Assembly (NCBI GenBank): GCA_964016885.1
Contig: OZ024757.1
Coordinates: forward strand, 27,094,001-27,158,000
Length of the DNA: 64,000 nt
DNA from: Eledone cirrhosa
Lineage: Eukaryota
Reading direction: 5' to 3'
Shown here: positions 34,216 through 62,800 of the stretch, in pieces
Layout of the letters: every line of letters starts with the position of its first letter
Numbering within the stretch: position 1 is the stretch's first letter
The notes under the pieces: generated by a model
Seen by the model: the letters and a program-made list of their open reading frames with translations, nothing else
The model's database searches: none
What the model was told of the DNA's origin: nothing
Position numbers and translations under genes: made by a program

Positions 34216-35035
34216 ACAGAGGACAGGAAATAACAAGGCCTCAAAATAAAGAAACTGGGTTATTTCTCAGACTACAAACTTCAATTTTTAATCAATGGAA
34301 TGAAAATCAGAAAGAATACTCATTATAAAACAGGGTTAAAATATTGTATTTCTAATTGTTATATTCTATAGTGCCATATTATGATGATGTGTGTATATAT
34401 CTCTATATATACACACATATCATCATAATATATATATATATAGAAATAATAAATGTGAAGACTAAAATCCGAAGAGGGCTTGATGAGGATTATATATCAA
34501 AATATATGAATATATCTATATTCATGAATATGTTTATATATGTCTATATATCCACCTTTTTCTCCTTATGACCAAAATTGAGAACTGATGTAGCCATCCA
34601 TCTATATATACAGAACACAACAAAGATGAATATAAATATCAGTTTAATTAACCCTGACCCTCCCCCCCCAAAAAAAAAGACATCTCACCCATTCGTCTTC
34701 CAGTGTCTTTAATGGAAATCGAATGGCATATATATATATATGCAGGTAAGAATACTTTATTATGTCATTACATCCTTCCTCAGACAGGCTGCTGACATCC
34801 GAAGACACCTGAGGTCTGTGCAGTAACCGTGTGGAGAGGAAGTGGCCAGACAAAATCCAGTATTTGTGACTGAAGAGACTAAGTTGGAGGTGAATAACAT
34901 ATCACAATGTGGTGTCCCAGATGAATGATTTAAGATAAAATTAGAAAAAAATGTGTTTTTAATTCCATTTTTAAATATCTTTTGTCGTTTCCAACCTCCT
35001 AGACATTCTTGTTTGAGTCACTCTCTTAAACGCAC

Positions 35036-35295: not shown

Positions 35296-35985
35296 CATCA
35301 TCATCGTTTAACGTCCATCTTCCACGCTTGCATGGGTTTGGACGGGAGTTTTCCCACTTGAGGCAAGATTGGTTGTCCTGGCGGGTTTTCTACGGCTGGA
35401 TGCCCTTCCTAACACCAACCATGTTTACAGTGTGGGGCTGGGAGGTTTTTACCGTCTTGCCTACACGGCCACATTACAGCGTGGACTGTGTGTTTTTTTG
35501 TCGTGACACCTACACGACCTCATTTGTTTCGGACTGGATGGTGTGGTACCAACATAACTTCACATTTAAGGGGGTGGTGGGACGGGGGTGTATTTTGTTA
35601 GGGGTGCCTACTGACTAGGTTTCATTTTGTACTTAGGCAAGGCGGGTCTTCTGTATAACTGTGTAGCGCCAAAGATCTCGGTACAGTGACATTGTCTTGG
35701 AGAGGTGGAAGTGTGTGAGGTCGGAATTTATCAAGTCGTCTCAGGTTTTTCTGGGTCTGCCTACTCCGTGGCTACCGTCTATTTTTATCGCCCTGCACTT
35801 TTTTATACAGCTGTCATCTTTCATGCGTATCACGTGACCGTACCAACGTAGTCTTCTCTCGAATAAACAACATGTGATCCCTCTTATTCCTAATTTCTCC
35901 TTTAGTTCATTTATGCTTTGCCGTTCACGTATATTACTATTACACATCCAGCGGAGCATGCAAGCTTCGTTTCTCTCCAGTCTGC
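35296..35985 (-). mobile_element. RTE LINE 3' end
   Basis: MLRWMCN..RRLRWYGHVIRM..GRPRKT followed by the (GAT)n-tailed 3'UTR. Confidence 0.85.
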
Positions 35986-36003
35986 GATATATATATATAT
36001 ATA

Positions 36004-36392
36004 TGAGGGCAATTGCAAAAGTAAGGTCTCCTTCCGATATTGCAACTTTTCCATTAAAATCCTGTGGATGGTGCTTTGGGAAACCTCAGGAATCAAAATG
36101 CAGAGAGCATCCAGAGTGATCCACAGATCTTTACGTATGTTTTCCTCGGAAGGAGACATTATTTTGGGATTGCCCTCGTATATAATAACTGTGCGAAATT
36201 CGCACTTGGCGGTAGCATTCAACGGGATCTCCATTCTCAACGGTTGCCAAGCCAAGATTGAGTATCCCAGTGAAGCACGCGCATGCTTGTTTGGGAGTGA
36301 AGGAAGCACCAATCACAACAGTGTTGCCAACAGCTGTACGAACAGTTTCTCTGCGTCCCCATCGCTTTGGAGACCTTTTGGGATTACCCTCG
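36004..36392 (-). mobile_element. Internally deleted mariner element
   Basis: TA-flanked TIR-like ends gagggcaattgcaaaag / ttttgggattaccctcg; transposase remnants CEFRTVI and VSQSTIHRILMEKLQYRK; an extra internal TIR at 36161-36181. Confidence 0.75.
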
Positions 36393-36465
36393 TATATATA
36401 TATATATATATGTATGTCAGGTCGCTTTTCAGCGCTACTGGTAACACATGCATGTAACCCAGTAC

Positions 36466-39400
36466 AACCTGTGCATGATCAGGTCGTCGGCGATTAAACC
36501 ATCAACCCCACCAAGCTTGCTTGGTTAGGAGGGTGACTTTGGACACCCTGCGGTATGAAAAACAAAACCTGTCAAAGGGCAGAGGAACTCAGATGAGTAA
36601 ACGACCATCCATTAGTGTTGTTTTTTGTTTATCTAGAGACTCCTAGTCTTCATTAAGACATCTCTCTAGGAGAGGCTCTTTCTGGTATAAAACCTGCCAC
36701 TTTGTTTGCATCCAATGATGTAGACCAGTTCTTCTTTTTGGATAAATGCATTCGATGTTCAGAGAGTGGGATTGGCCCCATGCAAAGCCTTTCCTTACTT
36801 AAAAAAGCTTCAAGCACAGGCATTGATTGATATGTGACATATTTTGCGATGCATGGTATTGCTGGTCATAGGCAAGTCCCGAGCAGGATTAAAAGCCAGA
36901 TCTGTGACACTCATGCTTAAGTATCAAGCTATGGCATTACTCAAAATAGAGTTGCAACTATCATATATATATGTATGTAATATATATATATCACACCTAA
37001 TTGCAGCAGTACAATCATACATTGCTATGAGGGCAAAGATGATGCTTTAGAAAAGATCAACTATGGAGGAATAAAACTAATGGTCCAAGTTATGAAAGTA
37101 ATAGTTATAGTACAGCTATAGTAAACTTAGTAAAGGGTCAGAAGGACTCTCCTGCTGTATCTAACATATGACAACCTCATTAGTGCTGTAACATAGCTAT
37201 GTTTGTTAGAATATGTTATAGCATGGCCTGGCTTTTTAGATTGTGCTGCAGCATGACCAAACTTGTTGTATGGTGATAATTTAGCGTAGGTAGGCTTTTT
37301 AGGTTGTGCTGTAGCATGGCCTGTCTATTTTTGCTGTGCCGCAGCATCGTTGGGCTGTTTAGATGGTGCTGTAGCACGGCCAGGATACTTGGAACATGAA
37401 TTCCTAAAATTTCGCGCATGCGCATTCAACTCCATCCAACCCAAGAAGAAAAGCAAATGGCCGACAGTTTGTAGAACTTTTCAAGCTCTACAAAAACGTG
37501 GTTTTCAAAGGGCATCCCTCCAAATAAAGGGTCAGAAGGACTCCCCTGCTGTATCTAAGACATGATAACCTCATTAGTGCTGGTGTCCTGATAAAAATGC
37601 ACTTCGTAATAGTGCTGTAGCATGGCCAGGTTTGTTAGAATATGTTGTAGCATGGCCTGGCTTTTTAGATTGTGCTGCAGCATGGCCTGGCTTTTTAGAT
37701 TGTGCTGCAGCATGGCGATGATGTAGCATAGCCAGGCTTTTTAGATTGTGCTGCAGCATGGCCTGGCTTTTGAGATTGTGCTGCAGCATGGCCTGGCTTT
37801 TTAGATGGTGCTGCAGCACGGCTAGGATACTTGGAACACGAATTCCTAAAATTTCGCGCATGCGCATTCAACTTCATCCAACCCAAGAAGAAAAGCAAAT
37901 GGCCGTCAGTGTGTAGAACTTTTCAAGCTCTACAAAAACGCTTGCTAAATGGTTTAAAAAAAAAAGAGACAATTGCAGTTTTCTGAAAGGTAACGTAGAT
38001 TTTTATATTACGAGATATTTTGGTAAATCTTTCCTTCTTAGTTCCCTCCATTATCAACCATTTTAACAGTAGTCTTTCTCTTCTTACCGTATTTCTAATG
38101 AAATACACAGACCACGTGTTCCAATTCATGTTGAAAATAAACAATAAAATGTAGGAATTTAATAATAAAATTCAACATGTTTTTTTTTTTATTCACAAAA
38201 AAAAAATCTAGTGTAGTTTTTTTTTAAACTCTTCCTAGTTTTCCCTGTAGCAGCTCTGTTGTCTTTAACAAATATTTCTATGTATTTGAAAGGTTCCTTC
38301 CAGATCGAGATCAAAGACCGTAAATTGTTGATTCAATTCTTCAGCAGTGCTAAATATTTTCTGAAACTGTTATAAATTCATTTTGTATTCTGTGGCAGAT
38401 TCTACGAGAGTGTCTTCTATGAAGTTTTCTCAGGTGTTTTAACGATAGAGTCCACAGCCCAATTACCAAATTCCCGCCCACATATTCCTATGGCAGCAGA
38501 CTCTTCAAACACTTCTTCCAGCGGATCCAAGAGTTATTTTCCACCCTGATAAAATGTGTGCCATAAATATATATATTTATTGGTCTTAGATAATTGTTGC
38601 TAAAGTGTTATAAATTAATTTCAGTTTTTAAAGCACTTTAACCCTCGTTATGTTCGTTCTACGGGAGTGCTTCACAAATGACGTTTGTCAGGTGTTTTAA
38701 CAAGAGGGTCCGCAGTCTGATTATTCACCAACACTACTCCGCCACATTCACCAACATCTATATATATATACATTTAAACTGGTCTTAAATAAACCTGTGG
38801 GTCAGGCCATTATAACGTGGAATCTTAGTTTATGTATTCTGGGCAAACATTTTGTTCTTTGTTCTCTTCATAATATCGTCATTAGCGGTAAGTGGGTCCG
38901 ATTCCTAGACTTGGTTGTGTATTGAGTTCTTGAGAAAAGATTTTATTTCACGTTATTCCAGTTGAACCTCTGGGCATCTATAGAACACAACAAAGATGAA
39001 TATAAATATTAGTTTAATTACCCCCCCCCCCCCCAAAAAAAAGACTTCTGACAGACTTTAGATATCAACCATTTGAAAAGCCTTTTTCATTCGTCACCAA
39101 CCCTCATGGTACCGTATTTCTAATGGAATACACAGCCCTTGCGCCTCGATTAATAATGAAAATTTTGAAGCAATTTAATAATGCATTTTTTTATATATAG
39201 GCCAGCAATTATGGCGGTGGTCGATTAAATTGACCCAGTGCGTGACTGGTACTTTATTTTATCGACCCCGTAAGGATGGAAGGCAAAGTTAACCTTGGCT
39301 GGATCTGAACTCAGAATGTAAAGGGCTGTAACTATCGTTAACTTGTGTATAGGTCACTTAATCTAATGGAGATCGCCTTTGTGGAAAACCTCTGCTATTG

Positions 39401-40748
39401 TCTTTAGTACTTTGGTCCTATTCCACCCAGTTACTCAGAGATATTTCATGAGATTGTAGGCAGATATTTATACCAACCTTTGACCTGCAATCCTACTTTT
39501 TAAAGAACTCTCTCTCAGTACGCCTGTCCTTCTCGTAATCATAGCTGAAGTATTGATCAGTATTAATATCGATTAACTTTTCACCACGTGAGTTCAATTC
39601 TCAATCATTAGGTGAGAGAGTGACGTCTTGGGTGCCATTTATCATAAGCACCAGTTAACCCATGTCCTGTGGGTGAAATTTGGTGAACTGGAACTGTCTG
39701 GAAGCTTGTGAGTTTTAATTTAAAGAGTCAGTCTTGTCACACTCCGTGCCAAACTTCAGTTTTTCTTCCCATAGTGGTGACAGTGTTGGACTTACGTTCA
39801 TAATGTGATGAGTTCAATTCCTGGATCGTGTTGTGTTTTGAGCAATACATTTCATTTCACGTGGCTCCAGTATACTTAGCTGAACATGAGTACCAGCAGT
39901 ATCTTAGGGGAGAGGGTAACCCTGCCATAGAATGGCGTCCTACTCATGGGAAGTCTCGTATTTTCAGTTGATTAACGCCAAGCAGACTAATAGACACCGG
40001 CTTAATGACAACCATCCTGCTCCGTAAGGGTAGACCCCTCGGTTAGGATGTCAAACGTTGGGACGTCTGCCCCTCATGTGATTGAGTGTTTGGGGCCGGA
40101 GACTTCCGATGTTCTTGGCCCCACGCACGGCTATCGGAGCGGAGTTAACTACCCACAAATGTGGTGCAGTAGTTGTTTCAGTAAGTCTCCCTAGCTCTGG
40201 AACCAGGAGACAGACTGACCCTGAAGTTTCATTTATGGTGGGGGCATGTAGAATATATTTACTTAAGCACTATTGTTATATTATTAAAAAATGAAAAACC
40301 TGTGTTTGTTTTTTATTCACAAAATTAATGTTGAAATTAAACAATAAAATGTAGGGATTTATTAATAAAATTCAACATGCTTCCTTTTTATTCACAGAAA
40401 ACATAGTTTTCCCTGCAACAGCTCTGTTGTCTTTAACAAATCTTTCAAGATTGAGATGAAAGACCGTAAATTGTTGATTCAATTCTTCAGCAGTGTTAAA
40501 TATTTTCTGACACTAATCACCATTTAACATTGTTAGTTAGTCGGCGATTGTCTTGTGGCCTTAAACCCCCAAAGTATGTGGAGGTTCTCTGGTTTGTCGC
40601 GAGCCCAGAAGCTTATCTCGTAAAATGACAGAGTACAAGACTCCAATGCAGGGTTAAAGCCTGTCTCAAGCCAGGAGACTCATTAAGCTTATCCTGGTTT
40701 CGTCCCTTAAAGTGACAGAGTACAAGATGCCAGTCCATCACAAGGTTA
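36466..40748 (+). repeat. Left arm of a large inverted duplication
   Basis: 36466-37050, 37500-38170 and 39195-40748 are reverse complements of 51350-51941, 50530-51300 and 48724-50335; ORFs 40082+ and 49165- are nearly identical. Confidence 0.92.
37615..37830. repeat. 30-bp degenerate tandem repeat (also 37216-37380, 50870-51190, 53875-54260)
   Basis: Unit ~ccaggccatgctgcagcacaatctaaaaag. Confidence 0.85.
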
Positions 40749-42224
40749 TTTCGCCATCATTAAGTCCCAGGTTCGATCACATCCCATTTGAAACTGGGTA
40801 TATAGAAGTCTGTCATCTGTAATTCAAATGGCCAGGCTTATACCGCTGAATCTCCTTCAGGATTACGTATGTTCGTAATTATAGTTTTACTTCTAGTGCT
40901 GTAGCATGGCCATGATACATGGAACATGCGCACTGGGTTTCTGAATCTCGCGCTTGCGCATTCAACTCCGTCCAAAACAAGAAAAAAAAATGGCCGTCAG
41001 TTTGTAGAATGTTACAAGCTTTACAGAATCTCTTGCTAAATGGTTTAACAATGGACAGTAACAGCTTTCTGAAAGGTAACGTAGATTTTTATATTATGTA
41101 TGGTCTACTATTTACCTAGTTGTTCTCTTGTTAACGTATTCTTAATTAAATATACACTCATCTTTTTCAATACATTGCGAATATAATAAAATTTAATTTA
41201 TATTTTTTGTCAATAAATATGTATCTAGTATAGTTTAAAAATTGTTCCTTGGGTAGTTCCTTTGTCTTTATCAAATCCTTCTGTCAACTATTTCTCCCCA
41301 TCAACATCTAACACTTAGCAATCGAACGTGGTGGTTTCGATTGTTGACTTTTCCAAAAGTTGCCCACCTCTTGCAATCTTTCCGAGGTACAGATCGTGTT
41401 GTGTTCTTGAGAAAAACACTTCATTCCACGTTGCTCCAGTAGTATCATGGGGTTTCGTACTTCCAGTTGATTAACGCCAAGCAGACTGTAATAGACACCT
41501 GGTTAATAGACTTCTTAATCATCCAAGAACAGTGTTGATTATTTTGTCAGACACTGAACCATTTTTACTTGCTGGTAATAAATATATACACACTAGTTCC
41601 ACTCTGAGGAGGCGAGAGACGTGGCCAGTCGATCTATGTTTGCCCTTTTTGATGGTCTCGATTAAGTTCATTCCTATCTGCTGTCGAATACAGGTGTGTT
41701 GCTCTTCCTCTTATGATTTGCTCCATTGCCCCTCACGGTGGTCTTGGACGGACCGTGCCTCAATGTGCCGGCCCAGAATAGTCCCACTTCGATTGGGAAC
41801 TAGAAGGACTTTTCCAAAAGTTGCCCACCTCTTGCAATCTTTACACACAATAAGTCTCTCCCATTTGACTTTGTCGATGGGGGTAAATCTTATCTTCTTG
41901 CTCCTCAGAACGTACATAAACGAAATTCAGCACATGGAGTTATACATTACACATACATATAAATATCTTTTATTGTTGTTTCGATAATGAACATCAATAA
42001 TAAATAAGAACTTCATAAAATAGAATTCAATGTGTTTTTATTGACAAAAATGTATTTAAATACACGAGAAATATTGTTTAATTCTTCTCTTATGTTCTTT
42101 ATAGATATGTCCAGCCACACAAGTGTTCTGTATGAACTAAGTCTGTAATAAAACAATTTTATCATATACTTTATTGTGTTATTTATTTATTCCTGGAATG
42201 AAGGTAAAACCTATTTTAAACAGC

Positions 42225-43100
42225 CGCATCAAGGTTTCGAATCCAACAGTCGCTCCAAAAATGGTTGTCCAATAAACAATGTAGACGGTGTCTTCAATGG
42301 TTCTATTTTCAGGAAAGAAAAAGAAAAGGAATTTAAAGAAAGAACCATCAGGGGTTCGAATCTAATAGTAAGTACCACCAAGGGAATAAAAGTAAGTATC
42401 AATAAAGAATGTCAACAATGTGGAAAGTATCATTGACGGTTCGAATCCAACAGTCGTCTAAGAATCTAATTAACCATCAAGGGTTCTAAGTAACAAAAAT
42501 GTAATAAGAACCCTGAAGTATGTAAAGAAAGTATCTCAGGTTCGAATCCAACTGTCTTCCAAGAATGTAGTAACCATCGTGGGTTCTAAGAATGTAAAGA
42601 ATGTAGTAAGAAGTATCATCCAGGGTTAGAATGTAATAAGAACCTTGAAGTATGTAAAGAAAGTATCAAGGGTTCGAATCTTAGTCAAGAATGTAGCAAG
42701 AAGTATCAAGGATTAGAATCTTATAATGTAGGAAGAAGTATCTAAGGTTCTAATCCACTGTCTTCCAAGAATGTAAGTGAAATTGTGGGTTCTAAGAATC
42801 TAAACAGTCTCTTTATATAGAAACTAAGTTAAGAAGGTTCTAATCCACTGTCTTCCAAGAATGTAAGTGAAATTGTGGGTTTTAAGAATGTAAACCGTCT
42901 CTTTATATAGAAACTAAGTTAAGAAGGTTCTAATCCAGTGTCTTCCAAGAATGTAATTAACCCTCAAGGTTCTAAGAAACTATGTTAAGAAGGTTCAAAT
43001 CAAACTGTCTTCCAAAAATGTAATTAACCCTCAAGGGTTCTAAGAAACTATGTTAAGAAGGTTCGAATCCAACTGTCTTCCAAGAATGTAATTAACATCT
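42225..43100 (+). repeat. Degenerate tandem array containing about 10 GGTTC(G/T)AATC motifs
   Basis: Motifs at about 42234, 42353, 42438, 42539, 42671, 42746, 42836, 42926, 42992 and 43060. Confidence 0.8.
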
Positions 43101-43534
43101 AAGGTTTTCTTCTAATATGAGCCTTGTAATATGTAAATGAAACTTCAAAAGTGTAATTAAGATTCTCTCTAATATATTTCTAAGAAAAAATTTCTTCTAA
43201 TATGCAAATGAGCAAATTAGATATGTAAATGAAGCTTCAAGAATCCAATTAAGATTCTCTCTAGATATTAAGATTCTTTCTAATATGTAAATGAACTTCA
43301 AACTCATTTGCATATTATTGAAATTTTGAAAAAGAATTCTTCACGGTGGTCAGGGACGGGCCTTGCATCTATGTGCCGGCCCCGAATAGTCCCAGGCCTA
43401 TGCAATCGTACGCCACTACGAATCGAACGCCAGACAGGGGGACTGGTAGAACGAGACGCAGTTCGCACGCCACCGCGAAGGCCGCAATTCTACTGAGTTA
43501 AATAGTGGTACTTATGCCTACTTTGGAAATATTT

Positions 43535-46335
43535 TGATCAAAAAAAAATTAATATATGCAAACGGAACAAAGGGAAGTAATTCTGGATTCAAATATTTTT
43601 TTCATAAGACAATTATTAATGCATTGGTGGTGCTGCGAAGACGGGGTTTTCGATGTCTGCCAACGGATTGTTTAGGGAGTTTAATTATGGGGGTTTATCG
43701 AAGTTCGATGGTGACCCTTTCTACAATTCAGGACCCTTTGATGTCTACAAGATGTTGCGATAGAGACGCAAGTTAGACGTGAGAGGGTAGCCAGCTTTGT
43801 TTACAGTCGAGCGATAGCCATAGAAGATTATACAGGTTAGACGTGAGAGGGTAGCCAGCTTTGTTTACAGTCGAGCGATAGCCATAGAAGATTATACAGG
43901 TTAGACATGTCTTTTAACCGCTTTTTTGGCGACCGTACATGCCTTTGGCCCTCTAAGCGAGCGTTAGCCACAGAGACGATCTTACAAGCCAGAGAGGACA
44001 TTGAGCCTTTGAGAGGGGAGGACATTTAACTTGAGTGTTCTCAGTCCTAGAAGGACACTGAGGTGTGGATACACACAACACTTCCACTGAAATATGTACT
44101 GCTTTTACAGTCACCAAAGAAGGCAGGAACTGACATATGTACAGTCACCCAATGATCCATAAGAGAAGAACAAGACAGTCACCATCGGTTTTCGATTGAC
44201 AACCATAACTACACCCCGTAACAATACACATATATCACCAGCAACATATTAACAATTTTGTAATGAAAAATATATATTCACACCTGAATTACTTCCATTT
44301 ATGCCGTTTACATATATTATTTTGGCAACAAATAATTAAAAATATAGATACAAATGTGACTAATACGTACCTTGATGGACTCCAGGTTTAAGGGTGTGGC
44401 CACAGGGAAGGGGTAAAGTGTGCCATTGGAGGGACAGCTACCACAATATACTGTATATCAGGGACGTTAAAAGACAGACCCATCTAGAGTTATAACTATA
44501 GACCGTATGGAAGGCTAGCTATTACAATATACTGTATAACAGGAACGTTAAAAGACAGGCACATCCTTACATTAGATGTAATTGTGGGCTGTAAGTATAG
44601 ACAGACCCAACATTATATTAGATGTAACAGTGGGCCGTGTGGAGGGACAGCTACCGCAATATACTGTATATCAGGGACGTTAAAAGACAGGTCCACCTTT
44701 TTATAAGCAGCAACTATGGGTCGTATGGAGTGAGAGACAGACACAACATTATATTAGATGTAATTACCGCAATGTAGTATATCTAGGACGTTAAAAGACA
44801 GACGCATCCTTATATTAGATGTAATTGTGGGTTGTCTAAGAATGTAGTAACCATCAAGGGTTCTAAGTATCAAGAATGTAAAGCAAGTATCTAAGGTTCG
44901 GATTCAACTGTCTTCCAAGAATCTAATTAACCATCAGGGGTTCTAAGTATCAAAAATGTTGATTATAAAAAAATTAATATATGCAAACGGAACAAAGGGA
45001 AGTAATTCTGGACTCAAATATTTTTTTCATGAGACAATTATTAATGCATTGGTGGTGCTGTGAAAAAGGGGGTTTTCGATGTTTGCCAACGGATTGTTTA
45101 GGGAGTTTAATTATGGGGGTTTATCGAAGTTCGATGGTGACCCTTTCTACAATTCAAAATGTTGCGATAGAGACGCAAGTTAGACATGTCTTTCAACCGC
45201 GAGAAGGTAGCCAGTTTTGTTTACAGTTGAGCGATAGCCATAGAAGGTTAGACATGTCTTTTAACCGCTTTTTTGGCGACCTTATGTACATGCCTTTGGC
45301 CCTCTAAGCGAGCGTTAGCCATAGAGACGATCTTACAAGCCAGAGAGGACATTTAACTTGACTGTTCTCAGTCCTAGAAGGAAACTGAGGTGTGATACAC
45401 ACAACACTTCCACTGAAATATGTACTGCTTTTACAGTCACCAAAGGAGGCAGGAACTGACATATGTACAGTCACCAAATGATCCACAAGAGAAGAACAAG
45501 ACAGTCACCATCGGTTTTCGATTGACAACCATAACTACACCCCGTATATAATAATACACATATATCACCAGCAACACATTAACAATTTTGTAATGAAAAA
45601 TATATATTCACACCTGAATTACTTCCATTTATGCCGTTTACATATATTATTTTGTCAACAAATAATTAAAAATATAGATACAAATGTGACTAATACGGAG
45701 CTTGATGGACTCCAGGTTTAAGGGTGTGACCACAGGGAAGGGGTAAAGTGTGCCATTGACAGATGTTACGAGACAGGCCTAACCTTTTATAAGCTGCCGT
45801 ATGGAGGGACAGCTATCACAATATACTGTATATCAGGGGCATTAAAATACAGACCTATTGTTATATTACATGTAACTGTGAGCCGTGTGTGGGGACAGCT
45901 AACACTGTATATCAGGGACGTTAAAAGACAGGCCCATCTTTAGATATAACTATAGACTGTATGGAGGGGTAGCTATTACATTATACTGTATATCAGGGAC
46001 GTTATAAGACAGGTCTCCTTATATTCGATGTCTGTATATCAGGGACGTTATAAGACAGGTCCACCTTTTTATAAGCTGCAACTATGGGCCATATGGAGTG
46101 AGAGACAGACACAACATTATATTATATGTAATTACCACAATGCACTGTATATCTAGGACGTTAAAAGACAGACACATCCTTATATTAGATGTAATTGTGG
46201 GTTGTCTAAGAATGTAAAGCAAGTATCTAAGGTTCGAATTCAACTGTCTTCCAAGAATCTAATTAACCATCAAGGGTTCTAAGTATCAAAAATGTAATAA
46301 GAACCTTCAAGTATGTAAAGAAAGTATCTGAGGTT
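43535..46335 (+). repeat. ~1.4-kb tandem duplication (2 copies; third partial copy at 47900-48610)
   Basis: aaaaattaatatatgcaaacggaacaaaggg starts both copies (about 43543 and 44968); shared downstream blocks. Confidence 0.9.
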
Positions 46336-47179
46336 GTATGGATAGACAGACAGACCTAACATTATAGCAGATGTAACTGTGGGCCGTTATATATATACAC
46401 CTCGATATCTCATCAGATATGCACATTTATGTGTGCAAAAGCGCCGCATGTAACTTTAATTACACACTTACCTAACATATGGCGGCGATCGAGTAATTGA
46501 ACTGTAGACTCTAGCGGTAAAATAGCCGAAAAAGCCTAATAGGGGACACACCCTAGATGCAGAGTACAATCATGACAGGGGCCCGGCTTTGCCTCGATAT
46601 CTTATCAGATATGCGAGTTTATGTGCACATTCGCTGGTAACAGTAATTACGGACTTACCTAACATATATGTGTGTAGTTGGCGGGGATCGGGTAAGTGGG
46701 CTGTACACCCGATAAAACCTCATAGGAGACACCCGTATTATAACAGAGCTGCTACAGGGAAAACTAGGAAGAGTATAAAAAAAAACTACACAAGATATAT
46801 TTTTTGTGAATAAAAAGAAACATGTTGAATTTTAGTATTAAATCCCTACATTTTATTTATTTTCAACACTGGAAGCCTTAGTCCCACTCCTAGATGCAGG
46901 GATCTCGTCGTTTGATTTGATCTGGGGACAATATCGTTCGGCACACCCTGAATGACGAAGCAGCCTTCTCTAGGGACAGTGCTGCTTGCTCCATATGGAG
47001 AGGGGTCTAGAAAAGTTGTGCTAAACCACAGTATACTGTATATCAGGGACGTTAAAAGGCAGGCCCATTCTTTTATCTCAGAGAAAGTCTTGCTGAGTAT
47101 CACTTCGGAGGTATTCCTCCGGATCGTCTCCCACACCACCCAGTTGGCAAACCGTGGTCAACGGGCATCTTTTCACACG

Positions 47180-47400
47180 GCCGAAAATCATCAAAGAATA
47201 AAAAGTAAACACCCACCTTCAATGGACCAAAAATCACATGCTGGAACCTCAGGACCTTGCTAGACAGTCAACCAGAGTATGTCAATCTGTTCTAATTCCA
47301 CACCAACTGTCAACACTGAATGTTGATATCGCTGGTCTCAGTGAGGTCCACTTCCCAGAGGAAGGCCGCCTACAAGACCATGGTAGAGACACCCGCCTAC
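47180..47400 (+). mobile_element. RTE LINE 5' region / AP-endonuclease N-terminus fragment
   Basis: CWNLRTLLDS..LNVDIAGLSEVHFPEEGRL resembles the RTE EN start. Confidence 0.65.
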
Positions 47401-47741
47401 ATGGAGTTTGGAAATAATTTGTAATAAATAAAATCATTAATGTATTTATATATCGACTTTTTCGTCAAATCGGACCGAGGAAACAATGTTTCCATTGGTC
47501 TTTCCAATTGCTAGTACTATCTATCGGTCGCAACTCCAGGTAGAAGACTCAGACTCAGAAGCTCCTGCGACGCATGATGAAATCATAATGTTCCATAGAA
47601 GGAGCAACGTGAAATAAAGTGTCTTGCCCGAGGACATAATGCACCTCACGATTGTGAATCCAATTCTCTAACCACTCAGCCACGCGCCTTCACATATACT
47701 ATGTATAAATAATATATAAAGGAAATTATTGTGGACTTTGT

Positions 47742-47850
47742 AGTCACGTGTGTTAGACAAATGGAATTCAAAAAGGTGCTCAGGGTTGTTGTTAACAAGA
47801 TGGTTAATAATTTTATGGGTGTTTACCAAGTCAGTTGCCAGATGTCGGGG
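47742..47850 (-). mobile_element. CR1/L2-type LINE fragment
   Basis: LATDLVNTHKIINHLVNNNPEHLFEF, matching the 27507 ORF. Confidence 0.8.
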
Positions 47851-48723
47851 CATATATTTTTTATTTTACTATATTTATATTGACACATAAACCGCTTTGT
47901 TTACCCTCCAGCCATCTTTGGTTACAAACGAGCGATAGCCATAGAAGATTATACAGGTTAGACATGTCTTTTAACCGTTTTTTGGGCGACCTTATGTACA
48001 TACACTACATGTCATTGGCCACAGAGATCTTACAAGCCAGAGAAGACATTGAGCATTCGAGAGGGGAGGACATTTAACTCGGGTGTTCTCAATCCTGGAA
48101 GGAGACTGAGGTGTGACACACACAACCCTGAAATATGTACAGTCACCAAAGGAGGCAGGAACTGACATATGTACAGTCACCCAATGATTCACAAGAGTCA
48201 CCATCGGTTTTCGATTGACAACCATAACTACACCCCGTAACAATACACATACATCACTAGCAACACATTAACAATTTTCTAATGAAAAATATATTCACAC
48301 CTGAATTACTTCCATTTATGCCGTTTACATATAATTAAAAATATAGATACAAATGTAAGTAATACGTACCTTGATGGACTCCAGGTTTAAGGGTGTGGCT
48401 ATAGAAGAGGGGACGGTAAAGTGTGCCATTGACACATGACCCCAATTCTTGGGATGTTAAGAGACAGGCCTAACTTTTATAAGCTGCTACTGTGGGCCGT
48501 ATGGAGCGAGAGACAGACCCAAACTTAGATGTAACAACTGCCGTATAGAGGGACAGCTACCACAATATACTCTATATCTGGGACGTTAAAAGACAGACCT
48601 ACCCATAGATATGTGAGCTGTATATACAGAGGAAGAAAGTGACCGAAAGCTGAAATGAATTTACAATTGTTTTTACGGTCAGTATAATACAGTTGGAAAT
48701 GAGTACCAGCAATAAGTGGGGGG

Positions 48724-51700
48724 TTAACCCTGTGATGGACTGGCATCCTGTACTCTGTCACTTTAAGGGACGAAACCAGGATAAGCTTAATGAGTCTCCT
48801 GGCTTGAGAGACTTTAACCCTACATTGGACTGGCATCATCTCCAGAGGGGGCTTTTGTACTCTGTCATTTTACGAGATAAGCTTCTGGGCTCGCGACAGA
48901 CCAGAGAACCTCCACATACTTTGGGGGTTTAAGGCCACAAGACAATCGCCGACTAACTAACAATGTTAAATGGTGATTAGTGTCAGAAAATATTTAACAC
49001 TGCTGAAGAATTGAATCAACAATTTACGGTCTTTCATCTCAATCTTGAAAAATTTGCTTTCTTTGAAAAAAAAGAGAAGCATGTTGAATTTTATTAATAA
49101 ATCCCTACATTTTATTGTTTAATTTCAACATTAATTTTGTGAATAAAAAACAAACACAGGTTTTTCATTTTTTAATAATATAACAATAGTGCTTAAGTAA
49201 ATATATTCTACATGCCCCCACCATAAGTGAAACTTCAGGGTCAGTCTGTCTCCTGGTTCCAGAGCTAGGGAAACTTACTGAAACAACTACTGCACCACAT
49301 TTGTGGGTAGTTAACTCCGCTCCGATAGCCGTGCGTGGGGCCAAGAACATCGGAAGTCTCCGGCCCCAAACACTCAATCACACAAGGGGCAGCGAAGCCT
49401 TGGCTGGTCAAAGGACACACAATGTTGTCAATTGAGAAAACGTCCCAACGTATGACATCCTAACCGAGGGGCCTACCCTTACGGAGCAGGATGGTTGTCA
49501 TTAAGCCGGTGTCTATTAGTCTGCTTGGCGTTAATCAACTGAAAATACGAGACTTCCCATGAGTAGGACGCCATTCTATGGCAGGGTTACCCCCTACCCC
49601 AAGATACTGCTGGTACTCATTTTCAGCTAAGTATACTGGATCCACGTGAAATGAAATGTTTTGCTCAAGAACACAACACGATCCAGGAATTGAACTCATC
49701 ACATTATGAACGTAAGTCCAACACTGTCACCACTATGGGAAGAAAAACTGAAGTTTGACACGGAGTGTGACAAGACTGACTCTTTAAATTAAAACTCACA
49801 GGCTTCCAGAAAGTTCCAGTCCACCAAATTTCACCCACAGGACATGGGTCAACTGGTGCTTATGATAAATGACACCCAAGACGTCACTCTCTCACCTAAT
49901 TATTGAGAATTGAACTCACGTGGTGAAAAGTTAATCGATATTAATACTGATCAATACTTCAGCTATGATTACGAGAAGGACAGGAGTACTGAGAGAAAAA
50001 GTTCTTTAAAAGGTAGGATTGCAGGTCAAAGTTCCCACCCCACAGGCTGGTATAAATATCTGCCTACAATCTCATGAAATATCTCTGAGTAACTGGGTGG
50101 AATAGGACCAAAGTACTAAAGACAATAGCAGAGGTTTTCCACAAAGGCGATCTCCATTAGATTGTGACCTATACACAAGTTAACGATAGTTACAGAACTT
50201 TACATTCTGAGTTCAAATTCAGCCAAGGTTAACTTTGCCATACCATCCTTACGGGGTCGATAAAATAAAGTACCAGTCATGCACTGGGTCAATTTAATCG
50301 ACCCCGCCATAATTGCTGCCCTTGTGCCTATATAAAAAACCCATTATGGATTGGTAGTATCGGTAGAGGGTCGGACGCCATGCATTGCAACAAAGAGTTA
50401 CGGCCCTTTATGGTCTGAGTTCAAATCCCGCCAGGGTTAACTTTCCCTTTCATCCTTACGGGGTCAGTAAAATAAAGTACCAGTAATGCACTGGAATAAT
50501 TGCTGGCCTTGTGCCAAAAGTAGAAATAATTATTAAATCCCAACATTTTATTGTTTATTTTCAACATGAATTGGAACACGTGGTCTGTGTATTTCATTAG
50601 AAATACGGTAAGAAGAGAAAGACTGCTGTTAAAATGGTTGATAATGAAGGGAACTAAGAAGGAAAGATTTACCAAAATATCACATAATATAAAAAAATCT
50701 ACGTTACCTTTCAGAAAACTGCAATTGTTTCTTTTTAAACCATTTAGCAAGCGTTTTTGTAGAGCTTGAAAAGCTCTACAAACTGACGGCAATTTACTTT
50801 TCTTCTTGGGTTGGAAGGAGTTGAATGCGCATGCGCGAAATTTAGGAATCCATGTTCCAAGTGTCCTAGCCGTGCTACAGCACCATCTAAAAAGTGAGGC
50901 CATGCTACGGCACAGCAAAAACAGACAGACCATGCTGCAGCACCATTTAAAAAGCCAGGCCATGCTGTAGCACAATCTAAAAAGCCTGGCTACACTACAT
51001 CATCACCATACAACAAGCCAGGCCATGCTGCAGCACAATCTAAAAAGCCAGGCCATGCTACGATAAATTCTAACAAACCTGGCCATGCTACAGCACCATC
51101 TAACAAACCAGGGCATGCTACAGCACCATCTAAAAAACCAGGCCATGCTACAACATATTCTAACAAACCTGGCCATGCTACAGCACTATTACTGAGTGCA
51201 TTTTTATCAGGACACCAGCACTAATGAGGTTATCATGTCTTAGATACAGCAGGAGAGTCCTTTTGACCCTTTATTTGGAGGGATGCCCTTATGAAAACGA
51301 CTTAATTAAGTTTACTATAGCTGTGCTATAACTATTACTTTCATAACTTGGTCCATCTTTGCCCTCGTAGCAATGTATGATTGTACTGTTGCAATTAGGT
51401 GTGATATATATTACATACATATATATATGATAGTTGCAACTCTATTTTGAGTAATGCCATAGCTTGATACTTAAGCATGAGTATCACAGATCTGGCTTTT
51501 AATCCTGCTCGGGACTTGCCTATGACCAGCAATACCATGCATCGCAAAATATGTCACATATCAAGCGATGCCTGTGCTTGAAGCTTTTTTAAGTAAGGAA
51601 AGGCTTTGCATGGGGCCAATCCCACTCTCTGAACATTGAATGCATTTATCTAAAAAGAAGAACTGGTCTACATCATTGGATGCAAACAAAGTGGCAGGTT

Positions 51701-51941
51701 TTATACCAGAAAGAGCCTCTCCTAGAGAGATGTCTTAATGAAGACTAGGAGTCTCTAGATCCACAAAAAAACCCCCCAAAAAACAACAACACTAATGGAT
51801 GGTCGTTTACTCTTCTAAGTTACTCTGCTCTTTGACGGGTTTTGTTTTCCATATAGCAAGGTGTCCAAAATCAACCTCCTCCCGAAGCAAGCTTGGTGGG
51901 GCTGCCCGTTTAATCGCCGACAACCTGATCATGCACAGGTT
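48724..51941 (-). repeat. Right arm (copy A) of the large inverted duplication
   Basis: Reverse complement of the left arm with scattered substitutions and indels. Confidence 0.92.
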
Positions 51942-52014
51942 ATAGTCCAACACTGTCACATTAAAAAGTAGGATTCCACGTCAAAGAACTCACCCCACAT
52001 GCTGGAGTGAGAGG

Positions 52015-54265
52015 GTTGGTAGAAATATCTGTCTCCAATCTCATGAAATATCTCTGAGTAACTGGGTGGAATAAGACCAAAGTACTAAAGACAATAGCAG
52101 AGGTTTTCCACAAAGGCGATCACCATCTAGATTAAGTGACCTACACACAAGTTAACGATAGTTAAATCCAGGCGAGGTTAGCTTTGTCTTCCATCCTTAG
52201 GCGTCGATAAAATAAGCACCAGTAATGTACTGGGGTTGATTTAATCGACTTCCCCCACCGAATTGTTGACCTTGTGTCTAAAGTAGAAATCATTATTAAA
52301 TTCCTTCAAAATTTTCATTATTTTCCAATATTAATCGAGGCGTATGGGCTGTGTATTCCATTAGAAATACGGTACCACTAAGGTCGGTGTCCGATAAGAA
52401 AGCTGCTCAAATGGTTGATATCTAAAGTCTGTTCCAAGCCCGGAGGTTCAATAGGCCGGTGCTTGCCTCGGTTATGGCGTGAAACATCTAAGAATAAAAG
52501 ACTATCCTTGGACAGGATGTCAGTTCATCACAGATTTAAACCCCCAGCTAGAGCTGGAGTAATGTGAAATAAAATCTTTTCTCAAGAACACAACACTAAA
52601 CCCAGTTACCTCTAATGACGATATTATGAAGGGAACAACAAACAAAATGTTTACCCAGAATACATCAACATAAACTAAGAGTCCACGTTATAATGGCCTG
52701 ACCCACCGGGTTATTTAAGACCAGTTTATATATAGAAGCGCCTGTCGTTCAAGAGGGTTCCAATGAGGTCTGTGAGTGCCAGGTCTTTTGTCAGCTACAA
52801 GATCTTTTTCAGGAGGAAACGACGGTTCAAAGTGTCAATGCGGCCGGCAGATCAACAAAGACGGCTCCTGTTACCAGTCCTTTCTGAAAACCATCTTCAA
52901 TGTGCTGAGTGAGATTCAGGAGTTGGCTTGTTGTGGATTTGCCAGGTCGGAATCCAACTTGTTGGGGGATTATGGCTGGTTCAACAACTGGGGCCAACCT
53001 GCTGAGGATCGGGTGGCATAGCAGGGAGATTGGGCGGAAACTCTTTGCATGCACTGGATCTTTACCCGGTTTGAGAAGAGCAATAATCCTGGTTTTTCTC
53101 CAGATCTTTGGGATGTTTCTTGTCAGCATGCAGTTGTTCATCAGCTCAAGGATCCATTTCCGTGTCAGAGCTCCAAAGTACTTGATCTCCTCTGTGAAAA
53201 TATTATCTAGGCCGATGGCTTTACCAGTCTTAAGGGCATTGATGCTGATATTGAGCTCTTCAAGCGAGAACGGCTTCGTCAGTCTGGTTTGGGAGTACTG
53301 AAGTCGGTCTACCTTTGGTCTTGGCTGTTTGGTGGTGGATTTCCCATTGAGCAACAGCTGATATGCACTGCTGAAGAATTGAATCAACAATTTACGGTCT
53401 TTCACCTCAATCTTGAAGGAAGCTTTCAAATACACAGAAATATTTGCTAAAGACAACAGAGCTGCTACAGGGAAAACTAGGAAGAGTTTTAAAAAAAAAC
53501 TACACTAGATAACATTTTTTGTGATTAAAATAGAAACATGTTGAATTTTATTATTAAATCCATACATTTTATTGTTTATTTTCAACATGAATTGCAACAC
53601 GTGGTCTGTGTATTTCATTAGAAATACGGTAAGAGAAAGACTGCTGTTAAAATGGTTGATAATGAAGGGAACTAAGAAGGAAAGATTTACCAACATATCT
53701 CATAATATAAAAATCTACGTCACCTTTCAGAAAACTGCAATTGTCTCTTTTTTAAACCATTTAGCAAGCGTTTTTGTAGAGCTTGAAAAGTTCTACAAAT
53801 TGACGGTCATTTGCTTTTCTTCTTGGGTTGGATGCGCAAGCAGGACATTTTAGGAATCCATGTTCCAAGTATCCTGGCCGTGCTACAGCACCATCTAAAC
53901 AGCCAGACCATGCTGCAGCACAGCAAAAACCGACAGGTCATGCTACAGCACCATTTAAAAAGCCAGACCATGCTGCAGCACAATCTAAAAAACCTGGCTA
54001 CGCTACATCATCACCATACAACAAGCCAGGCAGGCCATGTTGCAGCACAATCTAAAAAGCCAGGCCATGCTACGATATATTCTAACAAACCTGGCCATGT
54101 TACAGCACCATCTAACAAGCCAGGGCATGCTACAACACCATCTAACAAGCCAGGGCATGCTACAGCACCATCTAAAAAACCAGGCCATGCTACAACATAT
54201 TCTAACAAACCAGGCCATGCTACGATATATTCTAACAAACCTGGCCATGTTACAGCACCATTACT
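52015..54265 (-). repeat. Second inverted copy (copy B) of about 37600-39480
   Basis: Blocks 52020-52163, 52290-52430, 52560-52730 and 53365-54265 match the left arm in reverse; ORF 53572+ resembles 37923- and 50551+. Confidence 0.85.
52740..53365 (-). mobile_element. Ingi/Vingi-like (I-group) LINE RT N-terminal fragment
   Basis: PFSLEEL..LKTGKAIGLDNI..PKIWRKTRIIALLKPGKDP..SFRPISLL..QVGFRPGKSTTSQ..GAVFVDL; clade assignment tentative. Confidence 0.8.
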
Positions 54266-54329
54266 GAGAAGTGGATGTATGCTGTGTACAAGAGGTGAGT
54301 CTCAATGTGACTTCTCATGAACAAACTTT

Positions 54330-54780: not shown

Positions 54781-55064
54781 AAATATATTATTTACCAACT
54801 TAGATAATAATAAAAATACTCTAAATTCTATTTCATATGACCGTGATATACAACACCACGTGGAGGTGTGCCAGGAGCTAAACAAAACTATCGTTTAAAT
54901 AATTATTGCTGACATTGTGGAGGGAAATAAACATAAAACTGTTCAATATAAAATAAAGCTTTACTTTACCTGTGTAAAATAGACCGCATTGATTTTAAAT
55001 GAGTGATGTAGAGAGCAGTAAACAAAATGTATGTTTACGTACAAGAGGACGCATGTGTGCGAAA

Positions 55065-55880
55065 CACGTTTATATAGCTTGATATGTATGTCTATAAAAA
55101 GGAAAGGTTTCTTCCTGTATAGAGAAGATTGTAAAACATATTTTTGTCTCAAGAATATCTGCGAGTGTTTAGATTGTATTTCAAAAAGCCTTATATACAC
55201 TTATCTACAGAATAAGGTTTATAGAGAGATGACAGAATGTATTTGTATGCGTGTAGATATATTTCTGAGCATGTGGGTTAGTTTAGAAGAGGTAACTGTG
55301 TACCTTTGCGCGTGTGTACATATATATAGACAGAAAGCGGTCTAGTTACGATGCCTAAGGTTTAGTTTAGAAGAAAATGTATATAGTGAAGAACGTTTAT
55401 ATATAATGAGATGGCTTAGAAAGTATCTATATAGAGAGATGTATGTAATGTCTAAATGACTTAGTAAGTGTGTATATTTTTTTAGTTTAAAAGAAAGCAT
55501 GAGGGTTATTGAAAGTGTGTATATAATAAAATGTATAGAGAGAAGGTTTAGATACTATACAGCAAAGAAAACATTACATCCCTCTTTACACGAAGAAAAC
55601 AATATCCAGAGTGATTTTCTTTCAAAACCAGAAGACAACCGAAAAGAAAAGAGAAGAGTTTCATAAAGGGGAAGTGACTCTAAATTAAAGGGAGGTAATT
55701 CTAATCAAATTTACTAACGAGGTACTAACTTCGCGAGGTCCGGGACGCAGGCCAGACAAGTAGCCAGCCTGCGAAATAGTCCCAGCTGCATAAGCCACGA
55801 AGACCTTGTAACAATTCGAACTTCAGACACATAGAATGGTCACGCCGTACATAAGTAGACGACGAAGTCGGGACCGCTAT
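55065..55880 (+). repeat. Dispersed direct repeat, partner at 57695-58172
   Basis: Shared acacgtttatatagcttgatatg...gagaagattgtaaaac and atggtcacgcc.tacataagtag blocks. Confidence 0.75.
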
Positions 55881-56164
55881 ATATATATATAGAGAGAGAG
55901 AGAAACGGAACGAAAGCGAGATAACACGACATATTCCGAGTGTTACCTCACTGTCATTCCGTTTCTATATATATATAAATATAACAGGGTATATAGCCAT
56001 TGAAGAAGAACTAGTATTTTGTAGATATATTCGAATAGAAGGGGGTCGACTTGTGAATATTTTCACCAACATCAAATTCTACGTAAATAAGGTTTCTCAG
56101 ACACATGATAGGCAGGAGGGTTCCCTTATATTTGAGTATATTAACCGAGAAACTCCTAGTATTT

Positions 56165-56400
56165 TGTACATCTATTCTTCTTGCTCAACTGGGCCAGCGA
56201 TCTCAAAGCATCGTCATGGGTAGAGCCGACCAGCTCCTTTGCATCCTCCGGAGATCTTCCATGATGTTATCCAGCCGTGTGGGGCCTGCAGCCACTGCGT
56301 CAAACAAGAGTAAGGGCCTGGTAGGATGATCTGGCGGAAAACATGTCCGTACCAGTGCATGAGGTGGGCTGATATGCACGCAGCACTTTGAAGCTGTCAA
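56165..56400 (-). mobile_element. RTE-like LINE 3' ORF fragment
   Basis: Frameshifted WYGHVF-R-PPDHPTR..LDNIMEDLRRM. Confidence 0.6.
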
Positions 56401-57166
56401 TCCTCTTTGTGAGGGGCCACGTTTCTACTCAATATAGGAGTATGGAGAGGACAGAGCGGAGACTTCAAGTTTTCTCTACTTATTGCTATCAAAGTGGATT
56501 AGCCACCCACAGGAGTGACCCTCACAAATTAGAATAACTGTTTCTATCCATCTCCCTCACTATCTTCTGGGGTAACGCTGGTGGGGAGTGTTCTCTCACA
56601 TTGTACAGGCTTGTATCACTGGGGCAGTGGTGATATATACCACATTCCGTTTCTATATATATCTTGGTTGTTCATCGTAAACGATGATGACATCTTTTTT
56701 ATTTTAGTTCCCGTCTGCCGTGGGCACGAAGGTGGCTGTGGAGGCCGATCCTCGACTTGCAGGTCCGGGGAAGAAACCCGAGTCGCTTGGGGCAGCTGTT
56801 GATGCATTTCTCCTTTCACGGGCCTCAGTGACTTCTGCCCGTCTTTTCTCTTCAAAAGGGTCTTCGGCGCATGGGACTCGAGTTAATTTGGGGTGATTCC
56901 AGTGTTGTTGATACTGGACTTCACACAGTCTGTGAACCTCTTAGAGGCCTGCTCCGCTTTCGTTTCTCCGAACCGAGTTCCCCATACATCAAAATATAGA
57001 AACGGAAAGAAAGCGAGATAACGCGATATATTCCGAGTGTTACCTCTCTCTCATTCCGTTTCTACATATATATTAATTTCGAAACTACTAGTATTTTGTA
57101 CATATATACAGAACAATTAATATGTAAGTAAATATACTTACTTCAAGATGGTAACATATATGTTAA

Positions 57167-57297
57167 CCCTTTAGCATTCAAACCGGCTACTCATACTGAT
57201 GTTAATGTATTGTTCTCATAGATTCCATACTATGGGAGGTAAAGATTTTACCATGAAAATACAATAGTATATATAGAGCAATGCAAATGCTAAAGGG
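57167..57297. mobile_element. Short piggyBac-type MITE with TTAA TSD
   Basis: ttaa|ccctttagcatt...aatgctaaaggg|ttaa. Confidence 0.8.
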
Positions 57298-61732: not shown

Positions 61733-62800
61733 GCATATGTGTGTATGTATATACATACATGAATGTATATATATATATATATATTTACATACTCTAAATA
61801 ACGACCATTTCATAATATACTGAGTAAAATCATGGGTTTTAAAATTAAAAAAAGTCTTTTTTTCTGTGAAAAATACCTATAAAAACTTCATTCTAAATTT
61901 TGTAACATTCAATTGTAAGCAATCTGCAAGTCATTGAAAATATTCAGCAGAAATGGCATCAAAATAGACCTAAATTTGTCCCAACATTTATATAGCCTGC
62001 TTTCTTTTTTTTTTTTTTTTTTACAAACCCCTCTTTTTTTTAAAATTTATTTTCTAAAATTTTGCTTAAAAAGATAACTTTATATAATTTTTCTTTCTGT
62101 CCATAATTATATTAAAATATTTCTTCTCTTTACAAACAGTTGCTTTGAACCCTTCCCTCCCACAACATTGCTGCAAGCAAGGTTAATACTTGGTTGGTTC
62201 CAGAGGAAATAAATGGTAAATATATAGATACATACAAATGTATATATATATATATATTTACACACACATACGTATATATTTCTACACACAAACATATATA
62301 TGTATATCTATATACATATATTGTGATTTGCGTGAAGCTACTCTTGGTATTGTGATTTCGTCAAATTAATGTATGTATATATATGTATATTTATATGTAT
62401 ATATGCATATATTCATTTATATATGTATATATTCATATATACATGTATATATTCTTATATGTATATGTTGATTTAGTTGCCAATGACCCGACCATGTAAC
62501 AGGTTGTACTGGGTTACATGATACCAGTAGCACTAACGAGCGACCTGACATATATATATATATATATATTTTTATTTTCAGAAACACAGTAACATCATGA
62601 GAGGAAACACAGAAACCATTGGAGTAAAATAAAAAAAAAAGAAGCTGCTCTCTCAAGTTGTTATACTTTGTCTTCTTCTCTCACTCTGTTTCTTTCTTTC
62701 ATCCATTGTCTCCTTGTTAAACAATGCCTGACATCTTTCTGTGACAGTCTTGCGTCAGTTGTTGCTCCCAAGTCTTGGTGAAAGTTGAAAGGAATGTTAA

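Follow-up and report, generated by a model that had tools for sequence, protein, structure and literature searches.

Is the 18-kb palindromic locus that lies in intergenic DNA about 5.6 kb downstream of the octopod HSD17B8 gene a giant mobile element, or was it put together on the spot by the copying of local DNA? The locus is contained in a stretch of 64,000 nucleotides from the Eledone cirrhosa contig OZ024757.1, hereafter the window, for which a sequence-only reading had proposed a giant foldback element with its own cargo or a palindromic amplicon. The neighboring gene was located by tblastn with the Argonauta hians protein P0001:

6953..30819, plus strand, HSD17B8-like short-chain dehydrogenase gene

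Its coding exons lie at about 6953, 19296, 21530, 23998, 24662, 27148 and 29408, and the last exon is likely 30803-30819, the best among eight candidates, which reads GGLNF*. The locus had been described as poor in (TA)n compared with its flanks. None of the 35 runs of at least 16 bp in the window falls inside it, 6 of the 85 runs of at least 10 bp do, and it holds four clusters as compared with 5-7 in 12 of 19 equal-sized flank windows and 8-15 in the other seven; the depletion is therefore real for long runs and modest otherwise.

Self-BLAST and block alignment resolved the locus into three copies of one 4.3-kb unit, L in the plus and A and B in the minus orientation, with a spacer between L and A:

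36463..40748, plus strand, left arm L (unit a-b-c-d)
40749..48724, no strand, core (spacer), a non-coding mosaic of duplications according to self-comparison and ORF/Pfam search
48725..51944, minus strand, arm A, with an extra SINE at 50348-50528
51945..54268, minus strand, copy B, a truncated tandem copy of the unit in A

The proposed mirroring of a 4.3-kb left arm by A was borne out: L 36463-38166 pairs with A 51944-50529 and L 39178-40748 with A 50347-48725, both inverted, at a divergence of 2.7-5% in most blocks. The gap in A, previously placed at about 38170-39190, corresponds to L 38167-39177, and much of it is indeed kept in B (about 38167-38350 and 38755-39177), with 38351-38754 gone; the LINE fragment reported from B and missing from L stands where the latter piece would be. 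B was correctly seen as a partial mirror of L, but its limits had to be moved, the start from 52015 to about 51945 and the end to 54268. It consists, in order, of a piece of d, a 270-bp deletion, d1, c3, the reverse transcriptase (RT) fragment, c1 and b. Likewise, the five copies of a recurrent module in both orientations were recovered with refined coordinates, although the one in the core covers only 127 bp and not about 200 bp. The segments of the arms and the module copies, the latter from self-comparison, are:

36463..37134, plus strand, segment a, high-copy repeat debris (read depth, self-BLAST)
37135..37497, plus strand, L1, direct local copy of b, 88.6% identical to b (self-alignment)
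37498..38166, plus strand, segment b, low copy (read depth)
38167..39177, plus strand, segment c, missing in A and, for 38351-38754, in B as well
39178..40748, plus strand, segment d, which carries SINE pieces and a single copy of the module and differs from A by 2.7-3.2%
52739..53364, minus strand, internal LINE RT fragment in place of 404 bp of c (RVT_1 match)
38123-38368, plus strand, module copy
40323-40514, plus strand, module copy
46742-46868, minus strand, module copy in the core, 91% identical to 38129-38260
48979-49136, minus strand, module copy
53365-53593, minus strand, module copy

Debris of high-copy repeats, together with segment b, makes up the arms in patchwork fashion. The repeat in segment a, which we take to be LINE-like, reaches site depths of 31045 at 36800 and 18306 at 37084 (run X1) and extends to the left of 36463, with a match to 62466-62569, so that arm L has no clean terminus. 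L1 was inserted about 25 bp upstream of b, with a 5-bp microhomology (TAAAG) at its start. Segment b itself is a 30-bp minisatellite followed by a promoter-like stretch (a GCGCATGCGC palindrome, AAATGGCCG and an AAG|GTAAC donor-like site), whose motifs are presumably those of NRF1 and YY1. Each arm carries a single 30-bp array of 110-390 bp. The deletion in A joined the ends of b and c, which are anciently paralogous to each other (about 71%). The RT fragment matched RVT_1 at E 0.0033, short of the Pfam cut-off of E<=0.001, and neither a poly(A) tract nor a target site duplication (TSD) was seen around it. SINE-like sequence extends for about 60 bp past the inner breakpoint in A, not in L. A junction of two inverted SINEs at this breakpoint was considered and discarded, as the A side matches (0 of 2000 shuffles) and the L side does not (p 0.42-0.45).

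The core is built in a similarly composite manner, and most of it is poor in common repeats:

40830..41509, plus strand, C, old direct paralogue of the arm, about 15% from b (self-alignment)
42230..43300, plus strand, degenerate array of 35-, 68- and 90-bp-scale units with GGTTC(G/T)AATCC words, no frame kept
43339..43400, plus strand, CpG-rich motif with a paralogue at 41731-41792 (E 4e-8)
43527..46295, plus strand, tandem pair T1 43527-44959 and T2 44952-46295, 95.6% identical (self-alignment)
47462..47851, no strand, common SINE and LINE-tail fragments (self-comparison, read depth)
47910..48610, plus strand, T3, third partial T copy, about 92% (self-alignment)

In C, 40830-41313 matches 37730-38317 and 41391-41509 matches 39823-40008, and a single 30-mer stands where b has its array, which may have grown from such a single unit. 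T1 and T2 each carry an older foldback with arms of about 200 bp (43546-43745 vs 44144-44323). The CpG-rich motif bears a weak likeness to 55733-55851 and 58148-58214 (E 0.1-0.4), and the core motif had no exact match in metagenome and viral contigs. A tRNA gene search found none, and the GGTTCGAATCC words are therefore not intact tRNAs. The core may already be classified in the curated O. vulgaris repeat library of PMC13282606.

Could these copies be the remains of genes? If a duplicated gene 5' end or lncRNA had decayed here as a tandem cluster, b, L1, C, A and B would represent its promoter with a non-coding first exon, and the core the downstream introns and exons of a small family; this would account for the occurrence of GCGCATGCGC, AAATGGCCG and AAG|GT(A/G)AC in this order in b-type copies, and it agrees with a CpG o/e near 1 at 43001-44000 and a site depth of 142-224 for C (X1). 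However, the motifs are not present in all copies, the palindrome being changed in C and lost in B, every frame is broken by indels, the transcription factor assignments are putative, and no protein relative was found for the b-frame peptide, for ORF 42152-42433 or for the ORFs searched against Pfam, so that we regard this explanation as quite improbable. A coding reading of the b-frame peptide was given up after a search of longer proteins only, in which none of 25 candidates was related at E<=0.1. ORF 42152-42433 was likewise rejected as a gene: nothing was found at 0.9 or more in Atlas, and its two phmmer matches were both highly repetitive proteins, one with a C2 domain from an amoeba and the other an unnamed repeat protein, and tblastn gave no match on the window.

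Depth was taken from contigs of the public runs X1 and X2, which represent one sample. Background contigs are at a depth of 11.8-18.8, and three core contigs at 106.9 (189 bp, 0 differences, X1), 64.9 and 48.4 (variant forms, X2), or about 3-8 times background, with the proviso that the rows are the best supported and thus biased upward and that summed depth is no copy number. The genome therefore likely contains related copies of the core, probably a few, at other places, and the core is likely multi-copy; a further core contig (46452-46666) is at a depth of only 24. The inner arm segment d is also raised in X1 (143-357 at 40300 and 40513; 185 at 49746), as expected for a family bearing terminal inverted repeats (TIRs), and the high-copy repeat bins of the arms reach 9,000-1,700,000. 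Segment b (bin 37380-38044) is at 52-61, about four times the background of 12-19. Such a depth is accounted for by the four local copies alone and speaks against an 18-kb mobile form.

The same contigs speak to the possibility of an assembly artefact, in which haplotypes or chimeric reads would have been joined in inverted order. The L-core and core-A junctions are both unbridged among the 24 contig pieces listed (237,395 further pieces). However, the arms are 2.7-5% apart and differ by kb-scale indels, contigs specific to A (50744-51026), to L (38341-38835) and to the A-B junction match with 0-1 differences, and the outer edge of L is bridged in X4, a run with no library record. The A-B junction is spanned by contig 51790-52030 in both X1 and X2, at background depth. 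An artefact is thus extremely improbable, in agreement with the earlier view that the arms are no assembly echo. The junctions inspected show 0-5 bp of microhomology or 1-2 inserted bases, which by itself identifies no pathway.

We then consider the mobile readings. In the search for TSDs, the longest matches were of 0-4 bp for three pairs of outer ends and of 5 bp for the core, and 36 of 300 random pairs gave at least 5 bp, although old TSDs can decay. No Pfam domain was found at E<=0.001 in the 150 longest of the 165 ORFs of 48 aa or more, so that the earlier statement that no transposase or outer TSD was identified stands. Helitrons end at the 3' side in a GC-rich hairpin followed by CTRR; a strict scan for this combination, which decayed ends would escape, found three sites in the window and none in 36-58 kb. 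It also did not bear out a suspected Helitron-end likeness at 55855-55880, for which no literature support was found. Penelope-like elements and retrozymes carry a hammerhead core in repeated pseudo-LTRs, and here there were two loose hammerhead matches only, both in the RT fragment. An Rfam scan of 35000-60000 gave two matches, both to one (TA)n run outside the locus, and none within it.

If the entire 18 kb were a single giant foldback transposon, with TIRs of 4.3 kb and a cargo of 8 kb, this would explain the long inverted arms, the single internal tandem array per arm and the non-coding middle. Flush termini are, however, absent: the outer ends lie within a high-copy repeat that continues to the left of L, A is joined directly to B at its outer end, and 20 of the outermost 158 sites of the arms differ (12.7%), as compared with 13 of 469 (2.8%) just inside (p 1e-5). 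The b copies are local only, and the arms contain SINE and LINE debris of mixed ages. With neither TSD nor transposase found, this half of the original proposal is very improbable. A smaller form is unlikely, in which a non-autonomous low-copy element of foldback/Mutator or Helitron type would consist of d-core-d (about 10-11 kb) and would have duplicated the host flanks in inverted orientation by aberrant transposition. Core and d are both at raised depth (X1/X2), common repeats are scarce in most of the core, and the modular arrays and the older internal foldback of T1/T2 recall modular foldbacks such as Tetris (PMC4079207). On the other hand, L/A identity continues from d through b to a with no step at a candidate terminus, the 5-bp match at the core is within the null, the perfect hairpin with CTRR is absent in 36-58 kb, and C, an a-d-like direct paralogue, was already in place long ago.

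The arms resemble segmental duplications: they are >1 kb, >90% identical, inverted around a spacer and composed of ordinary genomic DNA with embedded interspersed repeats. Besides the two a blocks, L and A differ at 32/653 sites in b, 10/311 in d1 and 32/1203 in d2, L and B at 33/311 in c3, T1 and T2 at 53/1196, and C and b at 29/187. Block divergences thus span 2.7% to 15%, suggesting ages from about 4 to 24 My, dates that rest on a borrowed rate. The difference between b and the rest reaches p 0.03 only. Three-way sites among L, A and B favor L=A in d1 (8:2:0) and are near star-like in b (13:9:8), and a tree of the five b-type copies recovered no branching order. The patchy divergence and the d1 sites fit arm-to-arm conversion; a second copying event fits equally.

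We favor the hypothesis, which we hold to be probable, that the locus is a palindromic segmental duplication, which arose when template switching or microhomology-mediated break repair copied local DNA around a core from what is likely a small low-copy repeat family. The amplicon half of the original proposal is in this sense retained, with arms recovered by both alignment methods and the A-B junction bridged. Since the arms would have been copied locally by replication or repair errors around a likely multi-copy core, the locus is likely a duplication hotspot of an ordinary kind, rather than a giant jumping gene. Several rounds of serial template switching or break repair within a low-copy repeat cluster were likely involved. 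At the borrowed rate, the split between the 4.3-kb unit and C would date to about 24 My ago, that of L, A and B (star-like in b) to about 7-9 My ago and the T1/T2 duplication to about 6 My ago, followed at about 4 My ago by a second copying of inner a and d or by their conversion between L and A. Every copy added would likely have offered a homologous partner to the switch, deletion or arm-to-arm conversion that came next. Function need not be invoked for the locus.

It is rather unlikely that the core is an unclassified transposase-free low-copy octopod unit of 8-10 kb that moves or duplicates and seeds an inverted duplication of its flanks at each site, either as an invertebrate counterpart of the primate core duplicons or as a very large foldback still building its TIRs from host DNA. 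If other core copies were dispersed, each in its own inverted duplication, the locus would gain in importance, as it would then indicate a sequence by which the formation of palindromes is driven in the genomes of cephalopods. On the favored reading, the locus is a well-preserved small example of the reshuffling of octopod intergenic DNA by repeated local copying, and a caution that long inverted arms need not be TIRs. A narrow literature search for inverted duplications or palindromes in octopus gave no octopus paper among the matches listed, which is no proof of absence.

Known systems share some of these features. The foldback transposons FB, Galileo and Tetris (PMC4079207) likewise have long inverted repeats, an internal tandem array and a non-coding middle, but Tetris has a TSD of 8-10 bp, whereas the octopod locus has neither a TSD nor a conserved outer flanking domain, its arms are host repeat debris and the outer arm has no second copy. 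With ODIRA, FoSTeS, MMBIR and DUP-TRP/INV-DUP (PMC10766186) the locus shares local inverted copies, eroded palindromic arms and junctions with little or no homology. However, its order is +,-,- rather than direct-inverted-direct, its spacer is 8 kb and not 40-80 bp, and its events are spread over millions of years. In the human Y palindrome P8 (PMC6790999), a spacer of kb scale is likewise enclosed by two inverted arms, with secondary deletions and duplications, microhomology junctions and, perhaps in common with the octopod locus, arm-to-arm conversion; the octopod arms are ten times smaller, 95-97% rather than near-identical, and without a gene, and the locus differs further by its third copy in tandem and by a spacer that is likely multi-copy. 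The primate core duplicon LCR16a (PMC7419210) operates at a scale of 100 kb rather than kb, and core duplicons hold a transcribed, fast-evolving gene family, whereas the octopod core shows no coding signal; yet both have a core that is likely multi-copy, mosaic flanking duplications and SINE pieces at some junctions.

Self-BLAST and block alignments bore out the arm map of the sequence-only reading for the palindrome at 36463-54268, which comprises three copies of one ~4.3-kb unit and a core:

36463-40748, plus strand: left arm (L), divisible into segments a, b, c and d
40749-48724: core, a mosaic of an older partial arm copy (C), a degenerate array, a CpG-rich motif pair and a module copy
within the core: tandem pair T1/T2 (95.6%) and T3 (92%)
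within T: older foldback with 200-bp arms
48725-51944, minus strand: inverted arm (A), with a, b and d
51945-54268, minus strand: third copy (B), directly behind A, with a piece of d, d1, two parts of c, and b

In place of c (38167-39177), A carries an extra SINE, and in B a 626-bp RT fragment stands where 404 bp of c would be. Adjoining A on the same strand with partial contents, B is a tandem copy of the unit in A, truncated, and not a nested outer arm. All five copies of the recurring ~200-bp module were recovered. The reported poverty in (TA)n held for long runs, none of 35 lying inside the palindrome, but was only modest when clusters were counted. The sequence in which b and c end has two dispersed old copies (~70%), at 7385-7541 and 62943-63041, and part of the module neighborhood would thus stem from an old interspersed repeat. 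At 34606-34688 lies a direct copy (83% identical) of 38976-39052, a stretch that is largely missing from B; the likeness possibly reflects an insertion templated by the left flank. To the right of the palindrome, 54990-58260 holds another old direct duplication (55064-55369 versus 57695-57981; 55814-55880 also matches 58108-58174), the CpG-rich part of which weakly resembles core motif 43339-43515 (E 0.1-0.4).

Contigs of public sequencing runs were compared with the window at a likeness of 90, X1 and X2 representing one sample and X4 a second. An A-specific contig (50744-51026), a contig bridging the A|B junction (51790-52030) and right-flank contigs were identified in X1/X2, with 0-1 differences and depths of 11.8-18.8. 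In X4, the outer edge of L was bridged (36425-36715) and the L-only sequence 38341-38835 was covered with 0 differences. Restriction-site starts of RAD reads from a second study fall in the B array (126 and 49 molecules). For the two junctions of the core, L|core and core|A, there was no bridging piece among the 24 listed (237,395 more exist), which neither supports nor refutes them. The A-specific, A|B-bridging, L-edge and L-only contigs uphold the earlier argument against an assembly echo, and an assembly error is extremely improbable. At 37166-37218, a contig of X1 and X2 (depth 9-12) has six differences from L1, an older partial arm copy, two of them in the state found in b and A; X4 shows none. 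Either a divergent allele or a further copy of the L1 type may account for this contig.

Between L and A, differences amount to 20/158 in outer a, 13/469 in inner a, 32/653 in b, 10/311 in d1 and 32/1203 in d2. By three-way sites, the pattern among L, A and B is almost star-like in b (13:9:8), and in d1 L pairs with A (8:2:0). L1 matches b at 88.6%, and C is a direct repeat of b together with parts of c and d, at ~15% divergence. With a rate of JC 0.09 per 25 My, as implied by PMC13282606, the splits of arm blocks and older copies would fall very roughly at ~4, 7-9, 10-15 and 24 My. Segment a belongs to a repeat of very high copy number, with a site depth of 31045 at 36800; this repeat runs on to the left of L (match to 62466-62569), and d contains pieces of common SINEs. 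The bin depth of b (52-61) is about what four local copies would yield and therefore indicates no dispersed family of whole arms. The arms read as host-like DNA of mixed age. Directly left of L, 35914-36400 is a deleted remnant with an internal inverted repeat and very high depth, which we take to be Tc1/mariner-like (no Pfam match).

L1 starts at a 5-bp microhomology, 1-2 bases are inserted at the A|B junction and at the 270-bp deletion in B, T1 and T2 join at short imperfect homology, and the 1-kb deletion in A joined two sites that are old paralogues. Neither poly(A) nor a TSD accompanies the RT fragment in B. At the inner breakpoint, SINE-like sequence runs on for ~60 bp on the A side and not on the L side, so that the inner end of L would have been remodeled later, or A copied to L there. 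Junctions with little homology or inserted bases are the usual residue of repair or replication errors (NHEJ, MMEJ, MMBIR, template switching) as summarized in PMC10766186; the junction type here would fit such errors and names no single pathway. The sequence-only reading had proposed a giant foldback-type element or a palindromic amplicon. The foldback tests run, for flush ends and TSDs, gave neither (compare Tetris, PMC4079207), and it is very improbable that the whole 18 kb is a single foldback.

We consider a serial scheme probable, in which an old direct duplication gave the unit and C, an inverted copy plus a tandem extra gave A and B, and a and d were copied again or converted arm to arm. 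Deletions and templated fill-ins would have intervened between rounds, every round drawing on homology left by the previous one. The order of copying is what we infer, the copy map, divergences, junction letters and relative depths being read directly.

None of 150 ORFs (the longest of 165 with at least 48 aa) matched a Pfam family at E<=0.001, Rfam and tRNA searches gave no match in the core, and matches in protein-relative searches on arm and core readings were spurious or absent. The core is thus non-coding by every test applied. That the locus is a decayed cluster of 5' gene ends, a reading compatible with serial duplication, is distinctly unlikely. Strong acceptor-like (42104) and donor-like (42204) sites lie downstream of the donor-like site of C (41075); no evidence of splicing at these sites was found.

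A 189-bp contig identical to 43590-43778 reaches a depth of 106.9 in X1, ~8x background, with two related copies in the window, and variant contigs of X2 at 42016-42256 (depth 64.9) and 47073-47354 (48.4) each have one. X1 site depths were ~50 to 290 at most core positions listed, with 28 at 48244 and 964 and 3121 at two sites; these are the best-supported rows, and summed depth does not equal copy number. Although one core contig, at depth 24 only, runs counter to a multi-copy reading, the core is likely not single-copy. The depth of inner arm d is raised too. No TSD above chance was found at any end pair tested, and a mobile core with d serving as its TIRs is unlikely.

The window consists of AT-rich DNA of an animal. 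One exon, at 21530-21720, matches adh_short (Pfam), its sole relative among the matches listed being an HSD17B8-like protein of Argonauta hians (72% identity). With this protein, tblastn mapped seven coding exons between 6953 and 29485; the last exon is short, and the best of its 8 candidates lies at 30803-30819. By these results, the source organism is likely an octopod and the palindrome is intergenic, ~5.6 kb past the stop codon. The introns of the gene hold four homogeneous minisatellites (21743-23368, 24738-26210, 27904-28518 and 29912-30723; units of 23, 37, 61 and 45 bp; matches of 94-96%), three of which begin at or near an exon end. Short near-perfect hairpins occur at 5649-5940 (292-bp self-inverted stretch, 93%) and 15641-16159 (212-bp inverted arms, 99.5%, 95-bp spacer).

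The palindrome is real, was described well in the sequence-only reading and is likely an ordinary kind of rearrangement, and the remaining point of interest is which low-copy family the core belongs to. Its sequence has the features of a segmental duplication. In the way it works, it is comparable to spacer-bearing palindromic segmental duplications (PMC6790999) and to inverted CNVs that have eroded (PMC10766186). The likeness drawn to primate core duplicons (PMC7419210) stops short of a gene family and dispersed placement, and is limited to a likely multi-copy core amid mosaic duplications.
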